From an uncultured Pseudomonadota bacterium (lineage in GTDB: Bacteria; Pseudomonadota; Alphaproteobacteria; Rs-D84), in NCBI GenBank assembly GCA_902787305.1, contig CADAFS010000001.1, forward strand, positions 16,980-80,979: a DNA stretch of 64,000 nt. The letters run 5' to 3'. The notes below the pieces were generated by a model. The model was not told the origin of the DNA. It saw only the letters and a program-made list of their open reading frames with translations, and did no database searches. Positions within the stretch are counted from its first letter, which is position 1. Each line of letters opens with the position of its first letter. Below are positions 25,613 through 58,190 of the stretch, piece by piece. Both the position numbers and the translations under genes were made by a program.

Positions 25613-25882
25613 ACCAATCCCCCACCTCGTCGCTTTTCGGCGCCACTCCTCCGCAGGAGGAGAACTTTATGCTCTGGAATAATTTTGTAATTATAAAAAC
25701 ATAAAAACACTGATCACTATTTATTAAAATCTAATTCTTTTATTTTTTTCTGTGCAGGGCGAGTTCTCCTCCATTGGAGGAGTACCCGAAGGGGGAGGTG
25801 GTTAGAGTATTCGTTATTTATTTCATATTTTCTAACCACCCCGCCCAGTTCCACTGGGCACCCCTCCACAGGAGGGGAATTA
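25613..25882. repeat. Three copies (mixed orientation) of the GC-rich double-hairpin repeat around an AT-rich core
   Basis: 25617-25680: ..CCCACCTCGTCGCTTTTCGGCGCCACTCCTCCGCAGGAGGAGAACTTTATGCTCTGGAAT. 25762-25806: inverted copy. 25832-25878: CTAACCACCCCGCCCAGTTCCACTGGGCACCCCTCCACAGGAGGGGAAT. Confidence 0.75.
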
Positions 25883-26134
25883 TTATTTATCAAAATCTAA
25901 ATCTTTAATTTTCTCGGCGCGGGGGGTGATTTTGCCGATGGATGTTTGTAATTGTTCTATGTCCGTTTGGGCAAGGTTAAAGTGTTGTGAAACTTTGCCC
26001 GCGCGGTCCGCAAGGCGCGAAAGGTCGGTTAGCAACATGTCGAGTTCGCGTTTAATTTGACCCGCAACACGTTTGATTTTTATGTCTGATAATACTGCGC
26101 GGATTGTGTTTAATGTTGCCCACAATGTCGCTGG
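25883..26134 (-). pseudogene. Duplicated 3' fragment of rmuC (last ~83 codons plus stop)
   Basis: 252 nt matching 32832-33083 with 9 mismatches by eye. It begins exactly at the stop codon and encodes ..LWATLNTIRAVLSDIKIKRVAGQIKRELDML...EKIKDLDFDK. Confidence 0.85.
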
Positions 26135-32747: not shown

Positions 32748-32831
32748 TTTTAAAAAAACAAGAAAAATTTTGTCGTTTTTTTATTGAATCGAATCCTGTC
32801 AGCACAAAGTGGTGCCGCGGCAGGTAAAGAT

Positions 32832-33083
32832 TTATTTATCAAAATCCAGTTCTTTAATCTTTTCTGCGCGGGGGGTGATTTTGCCGATGGATGTTTGTAA
32901 TTGTTCTATGTCCGTTTGGGCAAGGTTAAAGTGTTGTGAAACTTTGCCCGCGCGGTCGGCAAGGCGCGAAAGGTCGGTTAGCAACATGTCGAGTTCGCGT
33001 TTAATTTGACCCGCAACACGTTTGATTTTTATGTCTGATAATACCGCGCGGATTGTGTTTAATGTTGCCCACAATGTCGCCGG
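32832..33083. repeat. Master copy of the 252-bp direct repeat (rmuC 3' end)
   Basis: Matches 25883-26134 in the same orientation, 6.95 kb away. Confidence 0.85.
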
Positions 33084-35797: not shown

Positions 35798-37697
35798 ATG
35801 GAATCTGAATCATTTTCCCAGATTTGTATATAACGCCACCACCATGGATGATTTTGTCCGCACATTTTTCAGATTTTATATCAAAGTTTGATGCGATATA
35901 TTTTATGTGTGGATTATCGCAAAGGTTTGAAAAGTGTTTAGAAAGTGAAACAAAATTTTTGAAATAAACAATGTCAAAATTTTGTTGTAAAATTGTGTAT
36001 ACGCCGGATTCCGCCGTAAAGCGTAAATTTTCTGTGCCGATTTTTTCACCGTTAAATTTCTTCCAATTATCAAAGGCAAAATAATTTCCACTGTCGTGTG
36101 ATTTGTTGAATTGTAATTTACCATCGATTGGTGTGGCGATAAGTTTGTGGTCGTGGCTTATATAAAAAATTGGTTTTTCGGTTGTTGCGCAAATGGTTAT
36201 GCCGGTGCAGATAAATAGAATCGCGCATACTGGTCCAATGTGGCGGGCGAAAAAGTTTTTGAAACTTGTATCATCTTTGATAAATATCAAACACGCTAAA
36301 CCGATGGATATTAGTATAATTGTGCCGTTTGGGATATTCCCAATCGTAATTTCAGAATATGGGATTTGTGATAACTTTTCGGCGATTGAGTATGTACGGT
36401 CATATATTATGTGTGCGATTTCAAGTGGCGTATGTATTCCAACGCATGCGCACATTGTGCCGATGATAACAAGTGGCATTATGATAAAAGAAAAGATTGG
36501 CAGGAATATAATGTTGCCGATAATACCGTAAATCGGTATTGTTCCAAAGTGTAAAATTATAAATGGTGCGGTAAATACCGTTGCCACCAATGCGGTTAAA
36601 ATCGCCGTATAGACATATTTTAATGCTTTTGAATTTGGGGTTCGTGGGTTTATGTTTTGCCACAACCATATGATTCCAAATATCGCGGCAAAAGATAACT
36701 GAAACCCCGCGGTCATTACATAATATGGATTGAATAGCATAATTATAAAAAGTGCAATTGATATAATGCGCAATGATAACGCGTTGCGTCCAAACATAAA
36801 TGCCACCATAACAAGTGTTGCCATGATAAATGCGCGCAGTGTTGCAACGCCGGCGCCGGATATAAAAATATACCCAAGTAAACCAATCCAGGTACATGCA
36901 ATGGCAGGGATACGCGCAGGAATATGACGAACAAGGGGCGGAATTAGTCTGAATATAAAATAAAACAATATGAATAACCAACCACCAATAAGTGTCATAT
37001 GATAACCACTGATTGACCAAATGTGTGCCATGCCATTTGTTGCCCATGTGTCGCGATGCCCATCGGGCAGGGCGTTTTTATAACCCAAAACAAGTGTGTC
37101 TGTTAAAAAAGATTTTGATAACTCGTGTATGGGTTCGCGAACGCTGTATACGGCGGAATCCGGCGTATAGATGATTTTTATGTCGCGTAAATATCCGGTT
37201 GCGGAAAGGTTTTTGAAATACATGTGCCTTGCAAAATCAAATCCATGTGGTATGTCCGCGGGTTTTGGTTTGAACAGGCCGCCGTTGCCGGATATTGTGT
37301 CGCCGATTTTTATATCGATTGTGTCGGTTGTTGATACGCGGACTTTCCCAAAGTTTTCAGTGTGCATGTATATTTTTGTCTTTTCGCCACCGGTATCGAT
37401 TTCGGTTACGTTGCCGGTGATTTCCGTGCCATGTATGTCGTGGCGCAGCATTGGAACATTTTTCATATGTGTGTATATTCCGGCGTATCCAAAACCCAAT
37501 ATAAAACATGCGATGATTGCAAAAAATGGTCGCCGCCGCAGTGCGATTATTGCGGAAACACCGATTATAAACATAATTGCAAGTGTGGTAATCTTTGGTT
37601 CGATGAATAATGAAAAATAAAGTGCAATACCGAACGCCGTCACAATCGGTGACCATAAAAATAAATTTTCGTGTTGATTATACAGAAATTTTTTCAT
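35766..37697 (-). CDS. comEC: ComEC/Rec2-family DNA internalisation channel protein
   Basis: 643 aa, polytopic. It has the DUF4131-like N-terminus and the competence-domain TM bundle. It lacks an obvious C-terminal metallo-beta-lactamase domain. Confidence 0.75.
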   Translation of the reverse strand: MKKFLYNQHENLFLWSPIVTAFGIALYFSLFIEPKITTLAIMFIIGVSAIIALRRRPFFAIIACFILGFGYAGIYTHMKNVPMLRHDIHGTEITGNVTEIDTGGEKTKIYMHTENFGKVRVSTTDTIDIKIGDTISGNGGLFKPKPADIPHGFDFARHMYFKNLSATGYLRDIKIIYTPDSAVYSVREPIHELSKSFLTDTLVLGYKNALPDGHRDTWATNGMAHIWSISGYHMTLIGGWLFILFYFIFRLIPPLVRHIPARIPAIACTWIGLLGYIFISGAGVATLRAFIMATLVMVAFMFGRNALSLRIISIALFIIMLFNPYYVMTAGFQLSFAAIFGIIWLWQNINPRTPNSKALKYVYTAILTALVATVFTAPFIILHFGTIPIYGIIGNIIFLPIFSFIIMPLVIIGTMCACVGIHTPLEIAHIIYDRTYSIAEKLSQIPYSEITIGNIPNGTIILISIGLACLIFIKDDTSFKNFFARHIGPVCAILFICTGITICATTEKPIFYISHDHKLIATPIDGKLQFNKSHDSGNYFAFDNWKKFNGEKIGTENLRFTAESGVYTILQQNFDIVYFKNFVSLSKHFSNLCDNPHIKYIASNFDIKSEKCADKIIHGGGVIYKSGKMIQIPSNRWWHNRPE

Positions 37698-49802: not shown

Positions 49803-51143
49803 TTATTTTCCCAAACATAATTGCGAAAAGGTCATATCAAGTATTTCGGCGGTGCCGATGGTGCCGAGTATTTTGCCAATCGCGTCCGCCGCGTATCGCA
49901 CGTGTTCAGATAAAATATCATAGTCGCCATTAAAATCGTTCAATGCCGCAAATAATTCATCGCGCGCGGTCATCAACAGGTCGTATGTGCGGGCGTTTAT
50001 CATGACCGTGCTTTCGCCGTTGTTTGTGATTTCGGCGATTCGGTTTCGGATTTCGTGCATAAGTTCCGGTATGCCCGCACCGGTTTTGGCGGAAACATAT
50101 ATTGCGCCGCGTATGTCGCGTGAATCGATTGTATCAGATTTATTTATGACCAAGATTTCATTTTCTGCAACCGGTGTGACCGAACCGTTGATATCGATGA
50201 CATGTAAAACTATATCGGCGTTGGCGATTTCGGTATTTGTTCGTTCAATTCCGATTTTTTCCACAAAATCCACCGTATTGCGCAGGCCCGCCGTATCAGA
50301 TAAATTCACCATATATCCGTCAATGTCCATTTGTGCGGACACGACATCGCGCGTTGTGCCGGGGATATCGGATACTATGGCGCGGTTCGCACCAACGATG
50401 CGATTGAACAACGAAGATTTTCCGACATTTGTTTCGCCAACGATTGCGATATTTATTCCGCACATTATTGCACGTGAAACTTTGTAATTGTCCAATACGC
50501 CGGAAACCGCCGTATAGAGCGTTTTTATATGCTCCAAAATTATATCAGAAATGTTTGGCGGTAAATCGTCGGCGTCATAGTCCGTCATTGCGGCGGCGTA
50601 TGCGGATATTTCCAACATTTGGTCGCGCCAATTTTCATAAATCGCACTGTCGCCACCCATCATGGAACGCAGTGCCGCCGCGCGCTGCTTATCCGTTTGT
50701 GCGTCAAGCAACGCAACCAATCCGTCAACATCCGTCAAATCCATTTTGCCATTATAAAACGCGCGCCGCGAAAATTCACCAGGGGTGGCAACACGCATAT
50801 TATGCCCGCGCAAAAATTCAAAGATTTTATTTATAACCGCCGGTGCGCCGTGGCATTGAATTTCGATTATATCGGTGCCGGTAAAACTGTGCGGTGCGGC
50901 AAAATAGATAACGACGCATTGGTCGATTATTTCGCCGTTATCATCGCGCAGGTTTGTAAAATACGCATGTCGGGGTACGATGCCACTACCCCCCGGCGTT
51001 CCACGCCGTACCCCTTCGCCAGCGAAGGGGAGAACGAGGCGTTGCGCGAATTTTTCTAAATCATTTCCCGATATGCGAATCACCGCAACGCCGGATTTCC
51101 CATGCCCAGATGATAATGCAAAGATTGTGTCGTTGTTATTCAT
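49803..51143 (-). CDS. mnmE: tRNA uridine-5-carboxymethylaminomethyl modification GTPase MnmE
   Basis: DTIFALSSG.GKSGVAVIRISG, G-domain GETNVGKSSLFN and DTAG, C-terminal CLGK. The ATG at 51143 is preferred over the GTG at 51158. Confidence 0.95.
   Translation of the reverse strand: MNNNDTIFALSSGHGKSGVAVIRISGNDLEKFAQRLVLPFAGEGVRRGTPGGSGIVPRHAYFTNLRDDNGEIIDQCVVIYFAAPHSFTGTDIIEIQCHGAPAVINKIFEFLRGHNMRVATPGEFSRRAFYNGKMDLTDVDGLVALLDAQTDKQRAAALRSMMGGDSAIYENWRDQMLEISAYAAAMTDYDADDLPPNISDIILEHIKTLYTAVSGVLDNYKVSRAIMCGINIAIVGETNVGKSSLFNRIVGANRAIVSDIPGTTRDVVSAQMDIDGYMVNLSDTAGLRNTVDFVEKIGIERTNTEIANADIVLHVIDINGSVTPVAENEILVINKSDTIDSRDIRGAIYVSAKTGAGIPELMHEIRNRIAEITNNGESTVMINARTYDLLMTARDELFAALNDFNGDYDILSEHVRYAADAIGKILGTIGTAEILDMTFSQLCLGK
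50982..51035. repeat. In-frame 54-nt copy of the GC-rich double-hairpin repeat inside mnmE
   Basis: + strand CACTACCCCCCGGCGTTCCACGCCGTACCCCTTCGCCAGCGAAGGGGAGAAC shares the hairpin loops TTCCAC and GCCAG with the intergenic copy at 55583-55630. It encodes VLPFAGEGVRRGTPGGSG. Confidence 0.7.
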
Positions 51144-51144
51144 A

Positions 51145-51720
51145 TTATCTGTTTCCACTTATTTCTTTTAATGCCATCGGGACCAGTTTTGATACCCCCG
51201 CGTCCGGATTTTGTGCAACCAATTTTTGTGCCATTTCGATTATGTCCATACGGCGGTACCCCAATGTTTCCAATGCCGCCAACAAATCGGGCAGGGCGCC
51301 CGTGTCGCCGGATGTATCAAATGCAAACGATGCGCCGCCAACCTTGGACTTTAATTCAACAATGATTTTTTCAGCGACCTTTTTCCCAACACCCGGTGCG
51401 GTTGCGATTGTTTTTGCGTCGCCGGTTGCGATTGCGGTTAGTAATGTATCGGTCTTTATCGTGCCCATTATCGCCATGGCAACCCGCGGTCCGACACCCG
51501 ATACACCGTTTAGCATATTGAATAAATTTTGTGCAGCGGGCGTTCCAAACCCGAACAAACGAATCGAATCTTCGCGCACGACCGTTTCAATCCAAAGTGT
51601 CGCCGTCGTGCCGGTGGCCGGGTTTTCCGGCGTATATACCTTGTACCCGACGGGGCCCGCCATCAAAATAATGAACCCGTCACCAATATAATCAACAATG
51701 CCTTGCAATTTTCCAATCAT
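51145..51720 (-). CDS. ruvA: Holliday junction branch migration complex subunit RuvA
   Basis: MIGKLQGIV...GYKVY, HhH motifs LNGVSGVGPRVAMAI and APGVGKKVAEKI. Confidence 0.9.
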   Translation of the reverse strand: MIGKLQGIVDYIGDGFIILMAGPVGYKVYTPENPATGTTATLWIETVVREDSIRLFGFGTPAAQNLFNMLNGVSGVGPRVAMAIMGTIKTDTLLTAIATGDAKTIATAPGVGKKVAEKIIVELKSKVGGASFAFDTSGDTGALPDLLAALETLGYRRMDIIEMAQKLVAQNPDAGVSKLVPMALKEISGNR

Positions 51721-51771: not shown

Positions 51772-52488
51772 ATGAGCGGACATAGCAAATGGCACAACAT
51801 TCAACATAAAAAGGGTCTTGCCGACGCGGCACGCAGTGGATTGTTTACGAAACTTGCGCGCGAAATCACGATGGCGGCGAAATTGGGCGACAAAAATCCG
51901 GATAATAACCCGCGGTTGCGTCTTGCGATTTTACAGGCGCGCAAGAATTCTATGCCGAACGATAATATCAAACGCGCAATCGACAAGGCATCGGGCGCAA
52001 ACACCGAAAGTTATGTGGCGGTGCGGTACGAAGGTTACGGCCCGGGTGCGGTGCCGATTATAGTAGAGGCACTGACCGACAACCCGCGGCGCACCGTGCC
52101 AGAGGTGCGGAATATCTTTTCCAAGCACGGTGGCAACATGGGCGAAGAGGGCAGTGTCGCATTTATGTTCACGCGCGTTGGGCAAATTTTCTATCCGGCA
52201 TCGATTGGTAAAACCGAAGATGAAATGATGGAAATTATTATGGACGCGGATGCGGACAATTTGGAAACAACCGACGAAGGTTTTATCATTACAACAAAAC
52301 CTGATGATTTTATGAATGTGCAGAAAAAGATTGCCGATGTTTTGGGCGAACCGGAAAATGCGGAATTGACATGGGTTCCGAATATGCCGGTGGACGTGGA
52401 CGAAGAAACATGGGACAAGGTTGAACGCCTGGTTGACGCGTTGGACGATAATGACGATGTGCAAAAGGTATTCACAGGCGCGGCGTAA
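51772..52488 (+). CDS. yebC: YebC/PmpR-family DNA-binding transcriptional regulator
   Basis: MSGHSKWHNIQHKKG...RLRLAILQARKNSMPNDNIKRAI. The ATG at 51772 was chosen. Confidence 0.9.
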   Translation: MSGHSKWHNIQHKKGLADAARSGLFTKLAREITMAAKLGDKNPDNNPRLRLAILQARKNSMPNDNIKRAIDKASGANTESYVAVRYEGYGPGAVPIIVEALTDNPRRTVPEVRNIFSKHGGNMGEEGSVAFMFTRVGQIFYPASIGKTEDEMMEIIMDADADNLETTDEGFIITTKPDDFMNVQKKIADVLGEPENAELTWVPNMPVDVDEETWDKVERLVDALDDNDDVQKVFTGAA

Positions 52489-52757
52489 AAGTGTAAGTGT
52501 TAGTGGTTAGTGTTAGTCCGTCACGACCGCGGCGCGGCGTGCCGCGACGGGTGCGCGGGGCAAAAGCCCCGCATTTTTTTGCCTCATACTTTTTTGTCAT
52601 TCCGGACAGGTGTCACCCACGAAAAATTTTATTTTTCGTGGGGCCCGTGGTCCGGAATAGGGCTAAGTAGTTGTGACGAATATTTCGTAATAAATTTGTG
52701 TTATTCGTCACAGGTTTTACAGACCCTATGGCGGACCAAGCCCGCCATGACAATTCT
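52489..52757. repeat. Heptad array plus palindromic repeat cluster
   Basis: GTGTAAGTGTTAGTGGTTAGTGTTAGT, then nested hairpins (ATTCCGGAC...GTCCGGAAT, CCCACGAAAAAT..TTTTTCGTGGG, TGTGACGAATA..TTATTCGTCACA) and the exact 29-nt repeat at 52724-52752. Confidence 0.75.
52555..52580 (+). terminator. Intrinsic terminator after yebC (embedded in the repeat cluster)
   Basis: GCGGGG-CAAAAG-CCCCGC followed by ATTTTTTT. Confidence 0.6.
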
Positions 52758-55081: not shown

Positions 55082-55522
55082 ATGGCTAAGTTCAATATTA
55101 TATCTCAGTTCTTGAAAGACATTTCTTTCGAAAGCCCAAATGTGCCGGATTTATTCTTTAAACAGGATAATGGCCAGGCCGAATTGGAAATCAATATCGA
55201 TATGCAGGTCAAAGGGTCGGAAAAAAATCTGTTTATGGTTGATTTGATTACAAAAATTCATTCGAAATTAAAGGCCGATTCGAAGTCTATATTTTTGATA
55301 GAGGCGACATATTCCGGTCTTGTGCAGATGGAAGAAGAAAAAGATGAAGAAAAGAAAAAACGCACACTGTTGATTGATGTGCCGACATTGTTGTTCCCGG
55401 CGGTGCGCGCATTGGTGACACGCCTTACGGCCGAATCCGGATTTCCACCGTTTGCAATGCAGATGGTTGATTTCGCAGATTTGTATGAAAAGCGGAATCA
55501 AAAGCAAGCCGAAGCAAAATAA
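55082..55522 (+). CDS. secB: Protein-export chaperone SecB
   Basis: FNIISQFLKDISFESPNVP..., LLFPAVRALVTRLTAESGFPPFAMQMVDF. Confidence 0.9.
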   Translation: MAKFNIISQFLKDISFESPNVPDLFFKQDNGQAELEINIDMQVKGSEKNLFMVDLITKIHSKLKADSKSIFLIEATYSGLVQMEEEKDEEKKKRTLLIDVPTLLFPAVRALVTRLTAESGFPPFAMQMVDFADLYEKRNQKQAEAK

Positions 55523-55528
55523 GAAAAA

Positions 55529-55550
55529 CGCACCGAATGGTGCGTTTTTT
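55529..55550 (+). terminator. Intrinsic terminator after secB
   Basis: CGCACC-GAAT-GGTGCG followed by TTTTTT. Confidence 0.8.
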
Positions 55551-55705
55551 AGTGTTAGTGGTCAGTGTAAGTGGGTAGTGAACCACACCCCGCCCCGTTC
55601 CACGGGGCACCTCTCTAGCCAGAGGGGAACTTTGCTTTCTGGAATAAATCTGTAATTACGAACAAATTCCAGAGCTCACTAACCACTTACATTAACACTA
55701 ACCAC
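55551..55705. mobile_element. MITE-like element: ~30-bp heptad-array inverted termini flanking a GC-rich double hairpin and a TCTGGAAT/ATTCCAGA core
   Basis: Left arm AGTGTTAGTGGTCAGTGTAAGTGGGTAGTGA. The reverse complement of the right arm is AGTGGTTAGTGTTAATGTAAGTGGTTAGTGA. Internal sequence CCCCGTTCCACGGGG and CTCTCTAGCCAGAGGGG. No ORF. Confidence 0.6.
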
Positions 55706-55764
55706 TTTTTGCGTTTCGGTCGTTTTTGTGATATATTTATCAGGGTAGGGGGAAAGTTAGTTTA

Positions 55765-56955
55765 ATGGCCAAAGATAAATATATCTCTATGCGAAGTTCG
55801 CTTAGTGGGTTTTCTTTCGCGAATCTTGGTATTTTTACCGGATTTGCCGATGGTATTTATAATGCCGTTTATTCCCTTGTTATCTTGGAAATTTTTATGA
55901 ATTCCGCGGTTGTTGGTGTCTATGTCGCGATTTATTCGGTGTTCTGTATGATTGTCGCGTTGTTCGCGCATGAGATTTTTCGCCAATTTTCCAAGACTAA
56001 GGTTTTTTATTTCGCACTGTTGATGTTGGTTGTGTGCTATGCGATGATGGGTTTTTCCGTGTTGCCACGAACGTTTATTGTTTTGGATTATACAAGTGGC
56101 TTTGCAATCACGCTTACCGCGATGTTGGTGCCACTGTTTATGTCAGATTTTTCGCGTGATGTTGGTATGGCGCGGCTAAATTCGCGGTATCATTTGTGGA
56201 TGAATATTGGTGCGCTGTTCGCGCCGATGTTGGCGGTGATTGTTGCCACCCGATTCGGTAATCGGTCGGCGTTCTTTTTGTCATCGGCGATTTATTTGGG
56301 GGCCTGGGTGTTTTTTAGGTATTTTCATTTAACCCAAGAAGACAAAGTTATAAAACCCGTTAGTCCGCGTCGGACGGTACGCGCACTTTGGCGCAACACG
56401 ATGAATTTTTTCAAAACGCCGGGAATGAAGCGCGCGTACATCGTGAATTTTGGATATTATTCGTTGCGGGCGATGCGTCTTTTGTATGTGCCGATTGTGG
56501 TGATAGAGGCCGGATTTACCAAGGATACATTGGGGTTGATTTTAAGTTTCGGTATTGTGCCATATTTGATTTTATCAGAAATTATGGGGCGTTTGGTGCG
56601 AAAATTTGGAAAAAGTATATGGTTGGTTTTGGGTTTCGGTTCGTTTGCGGCGTTTTCGGTATGGGCGACATTTGCGACCGGTTTCCCACTGCTTGCCATA
56701 TTTGTGTTGTGGCAGATTTCCGGCGCCCTTATGGAACCGGTGCATGATTTGTTATTCTTTGATGGAACAAAGCAGGCGCAACAGACAAAGTTTTATGGTG
56801 TGTTTCGCACAAGTTGCAATTTGCCAAGTGTGATTGCCCCCGGTATTGGCGCGGCATGTATTGCGGCGTTCGGAACAACCGCGGCGGTGTGGTGGGTGAC
56901 GGCCATAATAGGCGTGATTTCGATTGCGGTATTGATGGCAAGAAAAAGAGTGTAA
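55765..56955 (+). CDS. MFS transporter
   Basis: 396 aa with about 12 hydrophobic segments, typical of the major facilitator layout. Confidence 0.8.
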   Translation: MAKDKYISMRSSLSGFSFANLGIFTGFADGIYNAVYSLVILEIFMNSAVVGVYVAIYSVFCMIVALFAHEIFRQFSKTKVFYFALLMLVVCYAMMGFSVLPRTFIVLDYTSGFAITLTAMLVPLFMSDFSRDVGMARLNSRYHLWMNIGALFAPMLAVIVATRFGNRSAFFLSSAIYLGAWVFFRYFHLTQEDKVIKPVSPRRTVRALWRNTMNFFKTPGMKRAYIVNFGYYSLRAMRLLYVPIVVIEAGFTKDTLGLILSFGIVPYLILSEIMGRLVRKFGKSIWLVLGFGSFAAFSVWATFATGFPLLAIFVLWQISGALMEPVHDLLFFDGTKQAQQTKFYGVFRTSCNLPSVIAPGIGAACIAAFGTTAAVWWVTAIIGVISIAVLMARKRV

Positions 56956-57052
56956 GTGGTAAGTGTTAGTGGTTAGTGGCTAGTTCACACAGTGAAGGAA
57001 ACTACCCCACCGGCTTTGCCGGTCCCCCCCTTCACACAGTGAAGGGGAATAA
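56950..57052. repeat. Heptad array plus GC-rich double-hairpin repeat, overlapping the MFS stop codon
   Basis: GTGTAAGTGGTAAGTGTTAGTGGTTAGTGGCTAGT, then TTCACACAGTGAAGG, CCGGCTTTGCCGG, CCCCTTCACACAGTGAAGGGG. Confidence 0.75.
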
Positions 57053-57116
57053 AAAAATAAATTGCATAGTGTTTTTTTTGCGGTATCATACGGGGCGTAT
57101 AGCAAAGGAAGTTATT

Positions 57117-58190
57117 ATGGCAAAGAAAGAAACGGCGGCGGCCACGACGGGCGCGAAAAATCCGGCACTTGAATCGGCACTTGCACAAATTCAAAAGCAA
57201 TTCGGTAAAGAAGCAATTATGAAAATGGGCGATGGTTCGCAACAAAATATAGAGGCGATTTCTTCGGGGTCATTGGGGCTTGATATCGCACTGGGGATTG
57301 GCGGTTATCCGCGCGGACGTATCGTTGAAATCTATGGCCCGGAAAGCAGTGGTAAAACAACGCTTGCACTGCACGCGGTGGCCGAAGCGCAAAAGAAGGG
57401 CGGCACGTGTGCGTATATCGATGCGGAAAATGCGCTGGACCCAAGTTATGCGAAAAAGTTGGGTGTGGATGTTGCAAACCTTATTATATCGCAACCTGAT
57501 TCGGGGGAACAGGCGTTGGAAATTGCGGATACACTTATTAAATCCGGGGCGGTCGATGTTGTGGTTATCGATTCGGTTGCGGCATTGGTGCCCAAGGCGG
57601 AATTAGAGGGCAACATTGGCGACAGTTTCGTTGGAACGACCGCACGACTTATGAGTCAATCACTCAAAAAACTTGCGGGGTCGGTGTCGCGCAGTAATAC
57701 TTTGCTTATCTTTATCAATCAGATTCGTATGAAGATTGGCGTAATGTTCGGAAACCCTGAAACAACCAGTGGTGGTAATGCACTAAAATTCTATGCTTCG
57801 GTGCGACTTGATATTCGGCGCACGGGCGCAATCAAGGACAAGGAAAATGTCATCGGAAACGAAACGCGGGTCAAGGTTGTGAAAAATAAAGTTGCGCCGC
57901 CTTTCCGCACTGTTGATTTCAAGATTATGTATGGCGAAGGAATTTCGCGGATAAGTGAAATCTTGGATATGGGTGTGAAATATGACTTTATCGATAAGGC
58001 GGGCAGTTTTTATTCGTACAATAATGAACGCATAGGCCAAGGCGAAGCGAATGCGCGCCAATGGCTAAAAGACCATCCAGAAGCGCAACAAGAATTGTTG
58101 GATAAAATTATGGCGCGTGCGGGTGGTATTGCCGAAGAAATGACGACCGGTCCGTCGGACGATGCGGACGAAAGTGTGATGGAAGAATAA
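57117..58190 (+). CDS. recA: Recombinase RecA
   Basis: [19 protein letters not shown], Walker [27 protein letters not shown]. The ATG at 57117 has the RBS AAGGAAG. Confidence 0.97.

Follow-up and report, generated by a model that had tools for sequence, protein, structure and literature searches.

The GTPase gene mnmE in a 64,000-nucleotide (nt) stretch of contig CADAFS010000001.1 (GenBank assembly GCA_902787305.1, positions 16,980 to 80,979; hereafter the window, numbered from its first nucleotide) carries a 53-nt GC-rich repeat module within its reading frame. We consider this insert, with a probability of about 0.8, to be one module of a small selfish DNA family in a rumen Candidatus Enterousia lineage, linked to DUF559 genes and spread by recombination. 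Modules of this family occur singly between genes, as inverted doublets, or as inverted pairs around a gene for DUF559, a Vsr-like PD-(D/E)XK nuclease. In the N-terminal domain of MnmE, one module would have been copied into the variable loop that joins helix 1 to the strand after it; the copying would have overwritten 25 nt with 67 nt, and the module would be translated as a disordered surface loop with MnmE remaining functional. The filled allele would then pass between lineages by homologous recombination, with short flanking tracts carried along.

A repeat module in the mnmE reading frame

The module reads CCACTACCCCCCGGCGTTCCACGCCGTACCCCTTCGCCAGCGAAGGGGAGAAC on the plus strand of the window, which is its C-rich strand. 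The G-rich strand is the sense strand of mnmE and is translated as (V)LPFAGEGVRRGTPGGSG. The stretch folds into two adjacent GC-rich hairpins (Table 1). Because MAFFT alignments of all copies put hairpin 1 out of register, a covariance model (CM) named R1 was built only on the four intergenic copies that aligned best, of which the window and other genomes contributed two each. When the 64-kb window was searched with filters off, R1 found the mnmE copy at 37.5 bits (E = 1.7e-8), and the next unrelated match had E = 0.17. With a strict double-hairpin descriptor, the window gave matches at three loci and 20 shuffles gave no match. Judged by these searches, the mnmE insert belongs to the intergenic repeat family. 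An earlier note on this DNA had proposed a repeat copy in frame within mnmE, and this is borne out by the score of a model made from intergenic copies, by the open frame and by the purifying selection on the gene described below. The four intergenic copies that it had listed also exist, with limits set here by the descriptor or the CM, and a fifth, on the minus strand at 25760-25806, had been missed. By CM scan, mnmE was the sole gene with an intragenic module within the window. R1 scores divergent subtypes too low (the copy at 56997-57053 is an example).

The ortholog set consisted of 80 mnmE loci (L001-L080) from species-representative genomes. R1 matched only the closest relatives among these mnmE-centred loci (L001-L009 and L017) and gave no match in about 180 kb of L010-L035, so the family is a recent expansion of one sub-lineage. 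Rfam at gathering thresholds returned two tRNAs only in the window, with no known RNA family over the module and no intron.

The listed mnmE open reading frame (ORF) covers 49803..51158 on the minus strand and opens at GTG 51158, and the ATG at 51143 was preferred as the start. It matched the Pfam families TrmE_N (2.7e-35), MnmE_helical (9.6e-33) and MMR_HSR1 (3.5e-25), and its product scored 426.5 bits against the NCBIfam equivalog NF003661, which has a cut-off of 380. The architecture is that of MnmE, with TrmE_N at the N-terminus, a helical domain into which a G domain is inserted, and a CxGK motif at the C-terminus (the protein ends ...FSQLCLGK). The window has a G+C content of 43%. Its best mnmE matches were ruminant-gut metagenome-assembled genomes (MAGs) labelled Candidatus Enterousia or Alphaproteobacteria, all of them species-representative genomes, and the host is a Candidatus Enterousia-like rumen alphaproteobacterium. 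Between insert-bearing mnmE alleles, the ratio of nonsynonymous to synonymous substitution rates (dN/dS) was 0.09-0.13, which indicates that the filled gene is still under purifying selection. From this ratio, the equivalog score above the cut-off and the open frame, we judge the gene to be functional.

An AlphaFold2 model of the filled MnmE, built on a 30-sequence alignment, had a mean predicted local distance difference test score (pLDDT) of 78.8. It compared with the solved MnmE structures 9hip, 1xzp and 3gee at template modelling (TM) scores of 0.67-0.72, and its N-domain alone fitted 1xzq_B with a TM score of 0.87 and a root-mean-square deviation of 2.6 Å. The insert (approximately residues 38-55, numbered from MNNND) was placed between helix H30-37 and strand E60-66 of the N-terminal domain, with a pLDDT below 50 and without secondary structure, and its loop stops three residues ahead of the invariant Arg58. 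At the same position the loop is short in Thermotoga MnmE and longer in that of Chlorobium tepidum, which argues that the site tolerates length change. Whether the insert falls in a surface loop had been raised as a question when it was first noticed, and the model places it in a predicted disordered surface loop of the N-terminal domain that the MnmE fold should tolerate.

Filled and empty alleles among close relatives

Alignment of the MnmE proteins gave a filled form, FAQRLVLPFAGEGVRRGTPGGSGIVPRHAYF, in the window, L001, L002 and L017 and also in the metagenome contigs L082 and L088. The empty form, FAKKIIGRTPVPRHAYF, was found in L003, L004, L005 and L007 (86-91% identity overall), and all the more distant Enterousia (L010-L035) had the short form. 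Since filled and empty alleles both occur among close relatives, within orthologs of 86-97% identity, the insert is by this comparison not ancestral. The earlier note had named ancestral residues as an outcome that would speak against its proposal, and their absence from the 86-91% identical orthologs answers that point. Its figure of 18 extra codons does not hold, as DNA alignments against close orthologs gave a net gain of 42 nt, or 14 codons, at this position (mnmE site 1); 18 is the length of the module. It had also described a 54-nt insert at 50982-51035. The module is indeed there, but it is 53 nt long and begins one position later, and the allele arose as a replacement of 25 nt by 67 nt rather than as a simple insert.

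The filled allele is not an assembly artefact. A repeat mis-joined into mnmE during metagenome assembly would have been conceivable, in that repeats classically cause chimeric joins and, for some runs, the Logan contigs are interrupted close to the element. However, the same filled junctions were present in five other assemblies, namely three GenBank MAGs (L001, L002, L017) and two JGI contigs (L082, L088). In addition, a contig of the independent run X2 showed 2 differences across window positions 50800-51250, contigs of X3 and X5 spanned the insert exactly with both flanks, as did a contig of X28, and the reading frame is intact. We thus give an artefact practically no weight, and the chimera that the earlier note had considered is excluded by independent runs and assemblies alike. 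Empty alleles occurred in the same samples as filled ones, where they were seen as a 37-nt replacement.

Modules were also found at a second hot spot in mnmE, in a loop of the G domain that is empty in the window (Table 1). This site holds one module in L004 and two inverted modules in L017 and L088; the variant in L005 is +24 nt, and that in L001, L002 and L006 is +57 nt. The mnmE genes of the clade carry 0 to 3 modules in total, always in frame. Very improbable, in our estimate, is a native, lineage-specific MnmE loop that resembles the repeats by coincidence or is itself the gene segment that seeded them. Such a loop would fit with the variable length at this position across bacteria, including the longer loop of Chlorobium tepidum, but not with the lack of these residues in the 86-91% identical orthologs and in L010-L035, the place of the filled L088 beside the empty L007 in the gene tree, the CM E-value of 1.7e-8, or the presence of the same module type at the second mnmE site, in queA and in fibre-protein genes. 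With empty, single and double insertions at two mnmE loops coexisting in the same rumen communities, the remodelling by modules appears to have been caught under way.

One to several in-frame modules were also seen in the signal-peptide region of fibre-like exported proteins (L092:1167-2726, L123:4345-5745 and L133:11991-13574), where the N-terminus with modules reads MKKINLF..ISPLSDGKGCPVERGGVW...

Module architecture

Across the family a module is 46-58 nt long and consists of a 5' box, a variable hairpin (hairpin 1), a second hairpin of the form CCCCTYY..RRAGGGG (hairpin 2) and then AAC. A metagenome scan with a module-derived pattern yielded 61 loci, in which the CM found 84 copies. Combining the 61 loci with the earlier ones gave alignment A7, with 98 copies of which 78 were distinct. 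In A7, 95.6% of the cells were paired and 176 cells were changed on both sides, a pairing level that was reached in 0 of 500 shuffles and compares with 47-61% in slid controls; these counts come from an alignment that was fitted to the model and from copies related by descent.

The 5' box covaried with both arms of hairpin 2, with perfect linkage at three positions (Fisher p 3e-14 to 5e-17, 78 distinct copies), and shifted pairings of box and hairpin 2 gave no linkage. Six combinations of box, 5' arm and 3' arm were present: CCACCCC/CCCCTCC/GGAGGGG, CTACCCC/CCCCTTC/GAAGGGG, ACACCCC/CCCCTCT/AGAGGGG, ATACCCC/CCCCTTT/AAAGGGG, CCACCTC/CTCCTCC/GGAGGAG and ACACCTC/CTCCTCT/AGAGGAG. Read on the G-rich strand, which is the sense strand in mnmE, they correspond to the canonical purine-motif triples G.GC, A.AT and T.AT. 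Since the box and the hairpin 2 5' arm are mirror images, the G-rich strand should be able to form a purine-motif intrastrand triplex with hairpin 1 in one of the loops. On the strength of this covariation the architecture is of the intrastrand-triplex type known from the BoxC/PIT/TMECO repeats, and the three-way covariation constitutes evolutionary evidence for such a triplex. The triplex may form in vivo.

A scan for stop codons showed that each of the six frames was open in 41-72 of the 78 distinct copies. As modules are mostly without stop codons, a gene that receives one survives provided that the added length is divisible by three.

Modules flank DUF559 nuclease genes

The 305 kb of module-bearing rumen contigs contained six DUF559 ORFs, and all six were flanked by modules. 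L098 and L139 are apparently one locus, so the six ORFs represent five distinct loci. Their products of about 115-130 aa matched Pfam PF04480 with E-values of 1e-29 to 4e-53. In L102, L136 and both cassettes of L139, a minus-strand module lay upstream and a plus-strand module downstream of the DUF559 gene, with the GGGGAAC ends facing outward. A queA ORF of 661 aa (L139:515-2497 on the minus strand, also in L098) contained two whole DUF559 cassettes in frame, each with flanking modules. Pfam matched this ORF to Queuosine_synth in three pieces (2e-111), to DUF559 in two pieces and to MTES_1575, and found no Hint/intein domain in it. Translated as written, the QueA host protein would nearly double in size. 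The ends of the inverted doublet at 25760-25883 in the window (..GGTGGTTAGAG / CTAACCACCCC..) equal those that bracket DUF559 genes elsewhere, as compared with the L139 cassettes, and from this likeness the doublet is most likely an internally deleted cassette.

A comparable arrangement was seen in Escherichia coli K-12, where ycjD is a DUF559 gene (Pfam 1.4e-49) and the sole match to the published TMECO pattern in a 30-kb stretch (L142:16206-16240) lies 168 nt downstream of it. The region L142 16318-16425, between ycjD and this perfect TMECO/BoxC motif, is a degenerate duplicate of the ycjD 3' end, and a G/C-rich half-motif overlaps the ycjD stop codon.

DUF559 has been grouped with Vsr and I-Bth0305I in one PD-(D/E)XK clade (PMC3424549), and I-Bth0305I is a homing endonuclease of the EDxHD / Vsr-like family (PMC3239194). 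The DUF559 nuclease is likely the enzyme that mobilises the modules. DUF559 proteins are common and, to our knowledge, have no known role; a combination of DUF559 with triplex-type modules was not found in the searchable literature, and the titles and abstract openings of 15 of the 25 papers that mention DUF559 do not touch on such cassettes.

Spread of the insert

The 53-nt module was identical in all six filled assemblies, the mnmE cores of which differ by 3-13%. Along the whole of mnmE, segments of 53 nt with zero variation among five filled alleles fell only over the insert, compared to a gene-wide mean of 5.5 variable sites per segment. In the mnmE gene tree, the filled L088 stood beside the empty L007 (support 89/87) and apart from the group of the window. 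A sliding comparison showed L088 to be L007-like over most of mnmE, and the insert with its surroundings, about 190 nt in all, was identical or nearly identical to L002. This L002-like tract extended about 10 nt upstream and about 130 nt downstream of the insert. This mosaic indicates that the insert entered the L088 lineage by recombination together with a short flanking tract, and flanking markers were thus co-converted in L088. The mnmE genes of the window and L003 also formed a sharp recombination mosaic around insertion site 1, with a divergence of at most 2% over the 3' 1000 nt and of 20-40% over the 5' 300 nt.

The module could also have been kept in mnmE for a function, either as DNA or mRNA structure (pausing, stability or regulation) or as a new loop near Arg58 of the folate-binding/dimerisation domain. 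Such an exaptation would be compatible with a selfish origin, and it would account for the identity of the 53 nt across assemblies with divergent cores, for the invariant segments lying over the insert only, and for the covariation of hairpins and box across the family. We consider it unlikely, as close relatives do fine without the insert, both alleles coexist in the same rumen samples, the recent import into L088 by recombination suffices to explain the identity, and the insert is predicted to be disordered.

Neither mnmE site 1 nor mnmE site 2 nor queA showed a target-site duplication. The lack of a duplication, the overwritten target, the co-converted flank and the associated nuclease together speak more for copying by break repair than for transposition of the cut-and-paste kind. 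The copying may have been driven by nuclease-induced breaks, in a homing-like manner. A different view would be that the modules are repeats of the repetitive extragenic palindrome (REP)/REPIN or miniature inverted-repeat transposable element (MITE) type, moved by a transposase encoded elsewhere (e.g. RAYT/Y1), with DUF559 as a frequent neighbour or cargo. The inverted doublets and clusters resemble REPINs and BIMEs, some copies have GTAG beside the palindromes (GGTAGTGG), and the module orientation around DUF559 genes varies. All the same, this appears improbable to us: none of the filled/empty comparisons showed a target-site duplication, the target was overwritten and not split, all six DUF559 genes lay between or beside modules and none away from them, and ycjD of E. 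coli K-12 has the only TMECO of 30 kb 168 nt downstream. No transposase turned up either, though no genome-wide search for one was made.

Besides the relatedness of the aligned copies mentioned above, several observations weigh against a selfish, DUF559-linked family that spreads by recombination. The invariance of the insert fits either recent spread or constraint on the structure of the DNA or RNA. The RNA-labelled runs, in which just an empty allele from a relative and a module copy of unrelated context were present, carry no information on expression of the insert. Signature scans of about 600 kb, made up of the window and L001-L080, detected no DUF559-like ORF, so that neither the window nor the 7-kb loci of its closest relatives contain a DUF559 gene, and the contigs that do contain one come from rumen metagenomes and are not tied to the species of the window. 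Moreover, the modules of L128 are oppositely arranged around the DUF559 gene, and L005 and L009 have intergenic doublets in a tail-to-tail arrangement. This non-uniform orientation means that the description "terminal inverted repeat of a cassette" is too simple and that modules are not fixed cassette termini.

A contig from the metatranscriptome run X27 that aligned over window positions 50983-51026 contained a near-identical module (1 difference in 44 nt) with unrelated flanks. As this contig is derived from transcripts, at least some modules are transcribed.

Comparison with known elements

The earlier note had likened the insert to the Rickettsia palindromic elements (RPEs). The likeness in behaviour stands, since the module is an in-frame peptide insert in a functional housekeeping gene, but the element differs from RPEs in size, is unrelated to them in sequence and is not an RPE. 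Like RPEs and the Wolbachia palindromic elements (WPEs), the modules are hairpin repeats that occur both between genes and in frame in housekeeping genes of small-genome alphaproteobacteria, and they would be translated as an extra peptide that the fold tolerates; in-frame insertions were found in mnmE, in queA and in the signal peptides of fibre proteins. The families RPE-1 to RPE-10 (Ogata et al. 2000, as summarised in PMC10969869) measure about 100-150 bp, compared to about 50 nt (46-58) for the module. Each RPE family also encodes a conserved peptide of its own, and no enzyme is known to be associated with RPEs, whereas the modules lack an evident sequence relation to them, have a triplex-type build of three blocks, and form inverted pairs around a DUF559 gene. 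No RPE or WPE model was among the NCBIfam matches listed for MnmE (best 25 of 34), and both the size of the module and the Enterousia-like host, which is not Rickettsia, place it outside the RPE families. Rickettsia offers the best-known cases of essential proteins remodelled by repeats. In the present case the same process would operate with another element and in another lineage, a free-living-sized one of the gut. Such in-frame inserts inflate protein lengths and may mislead gene callers and the assignment of domain boundaries.

The BoxC/PIT/TMECO repeats (Hoyne et al. 2000; Holder et al. 2015) share with the modules three blocks on a single strand, one C-rich, a complementary G-rich one and a second, mirror-symmetric G-rich one. 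Further common traits are the GC-richness, the occurrence as single copies or inverted pairs, and the location at loci that vary unusually strongly between strains. The three-block build is evident in the modules from the box, which covaries with both arms of hairpin 2 at three positions. The published TMECO pattern is CCCTCNCCC N3-6 GGGNGAGGG N3 GGGNGAGGG with 9-nt blocks (PMC4666352). It was not matched by the module but was matched by E. coli L142 16206-16240. The module blocks are 7-9 nt (CCCCTYY/RRAGGGG), and a hairpin of 15-19 nt replaces the 3-nt second loop. In addition, modules lie in translated form inside genes and flank a nuclease gene, unlike TMECOs, which are reported to be always intergenic and near which mobility genes were reportedly never found (Holder et al. 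2015, PMC4666352).

Compared to homing endonuclease genes and inteins, the modules have in common the nuclease fold clade, in-frame cassettes in the conserved queA, a co-converted flank (L088) and no target-site duplication. They differ in that no intron ribozyme or intein domain was detected, in their structured inverted-repeat ends, and in that the mnmE copy is a single module without a nuclease. A nuclease ORF of a fold used by homing endonucleases is a property of the full cassettes only, the mnmE copy being without an ORF. By definition REPs lie outside genes, and the enzyme that mobilises them is a Y1 transposase. The modules resemble REP/BIME/REPIN sequences in being short, palindromic, abundant and clustered, in forming inverted doublets, and in having stems kept by compensatory change, but they also lie inside mnmE, queA and fibre-protein genes and have a third covarying block. 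In contrast to the REP/RAYT system, no RAYT turned up, though no genome-wide RAYT search was made. MITEs have terminal inverted repeats and a target-site duplication; the modules show the inverted ends in doublets, and their target was overwritten without duplication.

As a wider proposal, which we regard as tentative and give somewhat less than an even chance, DUF559 genes bracketed by triplex-capable modules may be an undescribed class of selfish elements. These would spread by nuclease-triggered break repair instead of transposition and persist within essential genes, in frame and without stop codons, as a kind of "unspliced intein", with single modules and doublets as non-autonomous derivatives and the BoxC/PIT/TMECO repeats as relatives with a YcjD-type enzyme. 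BoxC/TMECO triplex repeats have been known since the 1990s, and we know of no mobilising activity for them. The proposal would thus link two orphans, the DUF559 proteins and the BoxC/TMECO repeats, and if it is true, the long-orphan E. coli BoxC/PIT/TMECO repeats would gain their missing enzyme in YcjD-type DUF559 proteins.

Other features of the window

Table 1. Positions of mnmE, the repeat modules and their parts in the window
Feature	Position	Strand	Basis or remark
mnmE coding sequence	49803..51143	-	Stop codon 49803-49805 included; likely start ATG at 51143
Repeat module, 53 nt, inside mnmE	50983..51035	+	CM R1 37.5 bits, E 1.7e-8; identical in 6 assemblies
Remodelled tract, 67 nt in place of 25 nt of the empty allele (AAAAAAAATTATTGGCCGTACGCCA)	50979..51045	-	Filled/empty DNA alignments
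5' box CTACCCC(C), mirror image of the hairpin 2 5' arm, candidate third strand of an intrastrand triplex	50986..50993	+	Three-way covariation, 78 distinct copies
Hairpin 1, CGGCGT-tcc-ACGCCG	50994..51008	+	Fold; all 7 pairs with compensatory changes across the family
Hairpin 2, CCCCTTCG-ccag-CGAAGGGG, then AGAAC	51011..51030	+	Fold; 99% of cells paired in alignment A7
Second insertion hot spot in mnmE, G-domain loop after ADIVLHVID, empty in the window	50154..50192	-	Protein/DNA alignments, CM matches
Intergenic module	25617..25668	+	CM 39.6 bits, E 4e-9
Inverted doublet: modules 25760-25806 (-) and 25831-25883 (+), 24-nt spacer	25760..25883	.	CM 35.0 and 65.5 bits
Intergenic module between secB and the major facilitator superfamily (MFS) transporter gene	55580..55633	+	CM 76.8 bits; gene identities by Pfam
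Intergenic module between the MFS gene and recA, divergent subtype	56997..57053	+	Descriptor scan; fold z = -4.7; CM 8.8 bits

Three other candidates were rejected. The match of R1 to yebC at 52074-52116 (12.6 bits, E 0.17), which recurs in L001, L002 and L006, was treated as chance, as no extra YebC residues were seen by eye. A duplicate of rmuC sequence (25866-26134 / 32815-33083) was considered as starting in a module at its second copy, which it does not. The modules at 55580 and 56997 were considered as the ends of a composite transposon, but the gene between secB and recA is an ordinary MFS transporter, and the syntenic L091 differs only in the number of modules and in a 1.3-kb fibre-like gene.

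The region of L091 aligned to window positions 55265-57722 at 96% identity. Its 1.3-kb gene (L091:1782-3118 versus window 56983) encodes an exported fibre-like protein of 328 aa and occupies, between the MFS gene and recA, the very place of the module at 56997-57053 in the window. The secB-MFS spacer holds three modules in L091 compared to one in the window.

Two other short repeats were seen. Arrays of the heptamer GTWAGTG lie at 52493-52512, 55554-55573, 55677-55702 (reverse complement) and 56952-56978 in the window, directly after yebC and secB and on either side of the MFS gene. These intergenic sites also hold modules, in the window or in relatives (e.g. a doublet after yebC in L005 and L009), and the module end (GGTAGTGG, GGTTAGAG) resembles the heptamer. 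The octamer ATACGSCG is strongly over-represented across the window (e.g. at 50486-50526, in mnmE, and 37147-37169), with 18 copies on one strand and 15 on the other where about 1.4 per strand would be expected, and it often forms the palindrome TATACGGCGGnnnCCGGCGTATA. It could possibly serve as an uptake signal or as a terminator-like element. The copy in mnmE, within the codons for KTLYTAVSGV, causes no change in length.

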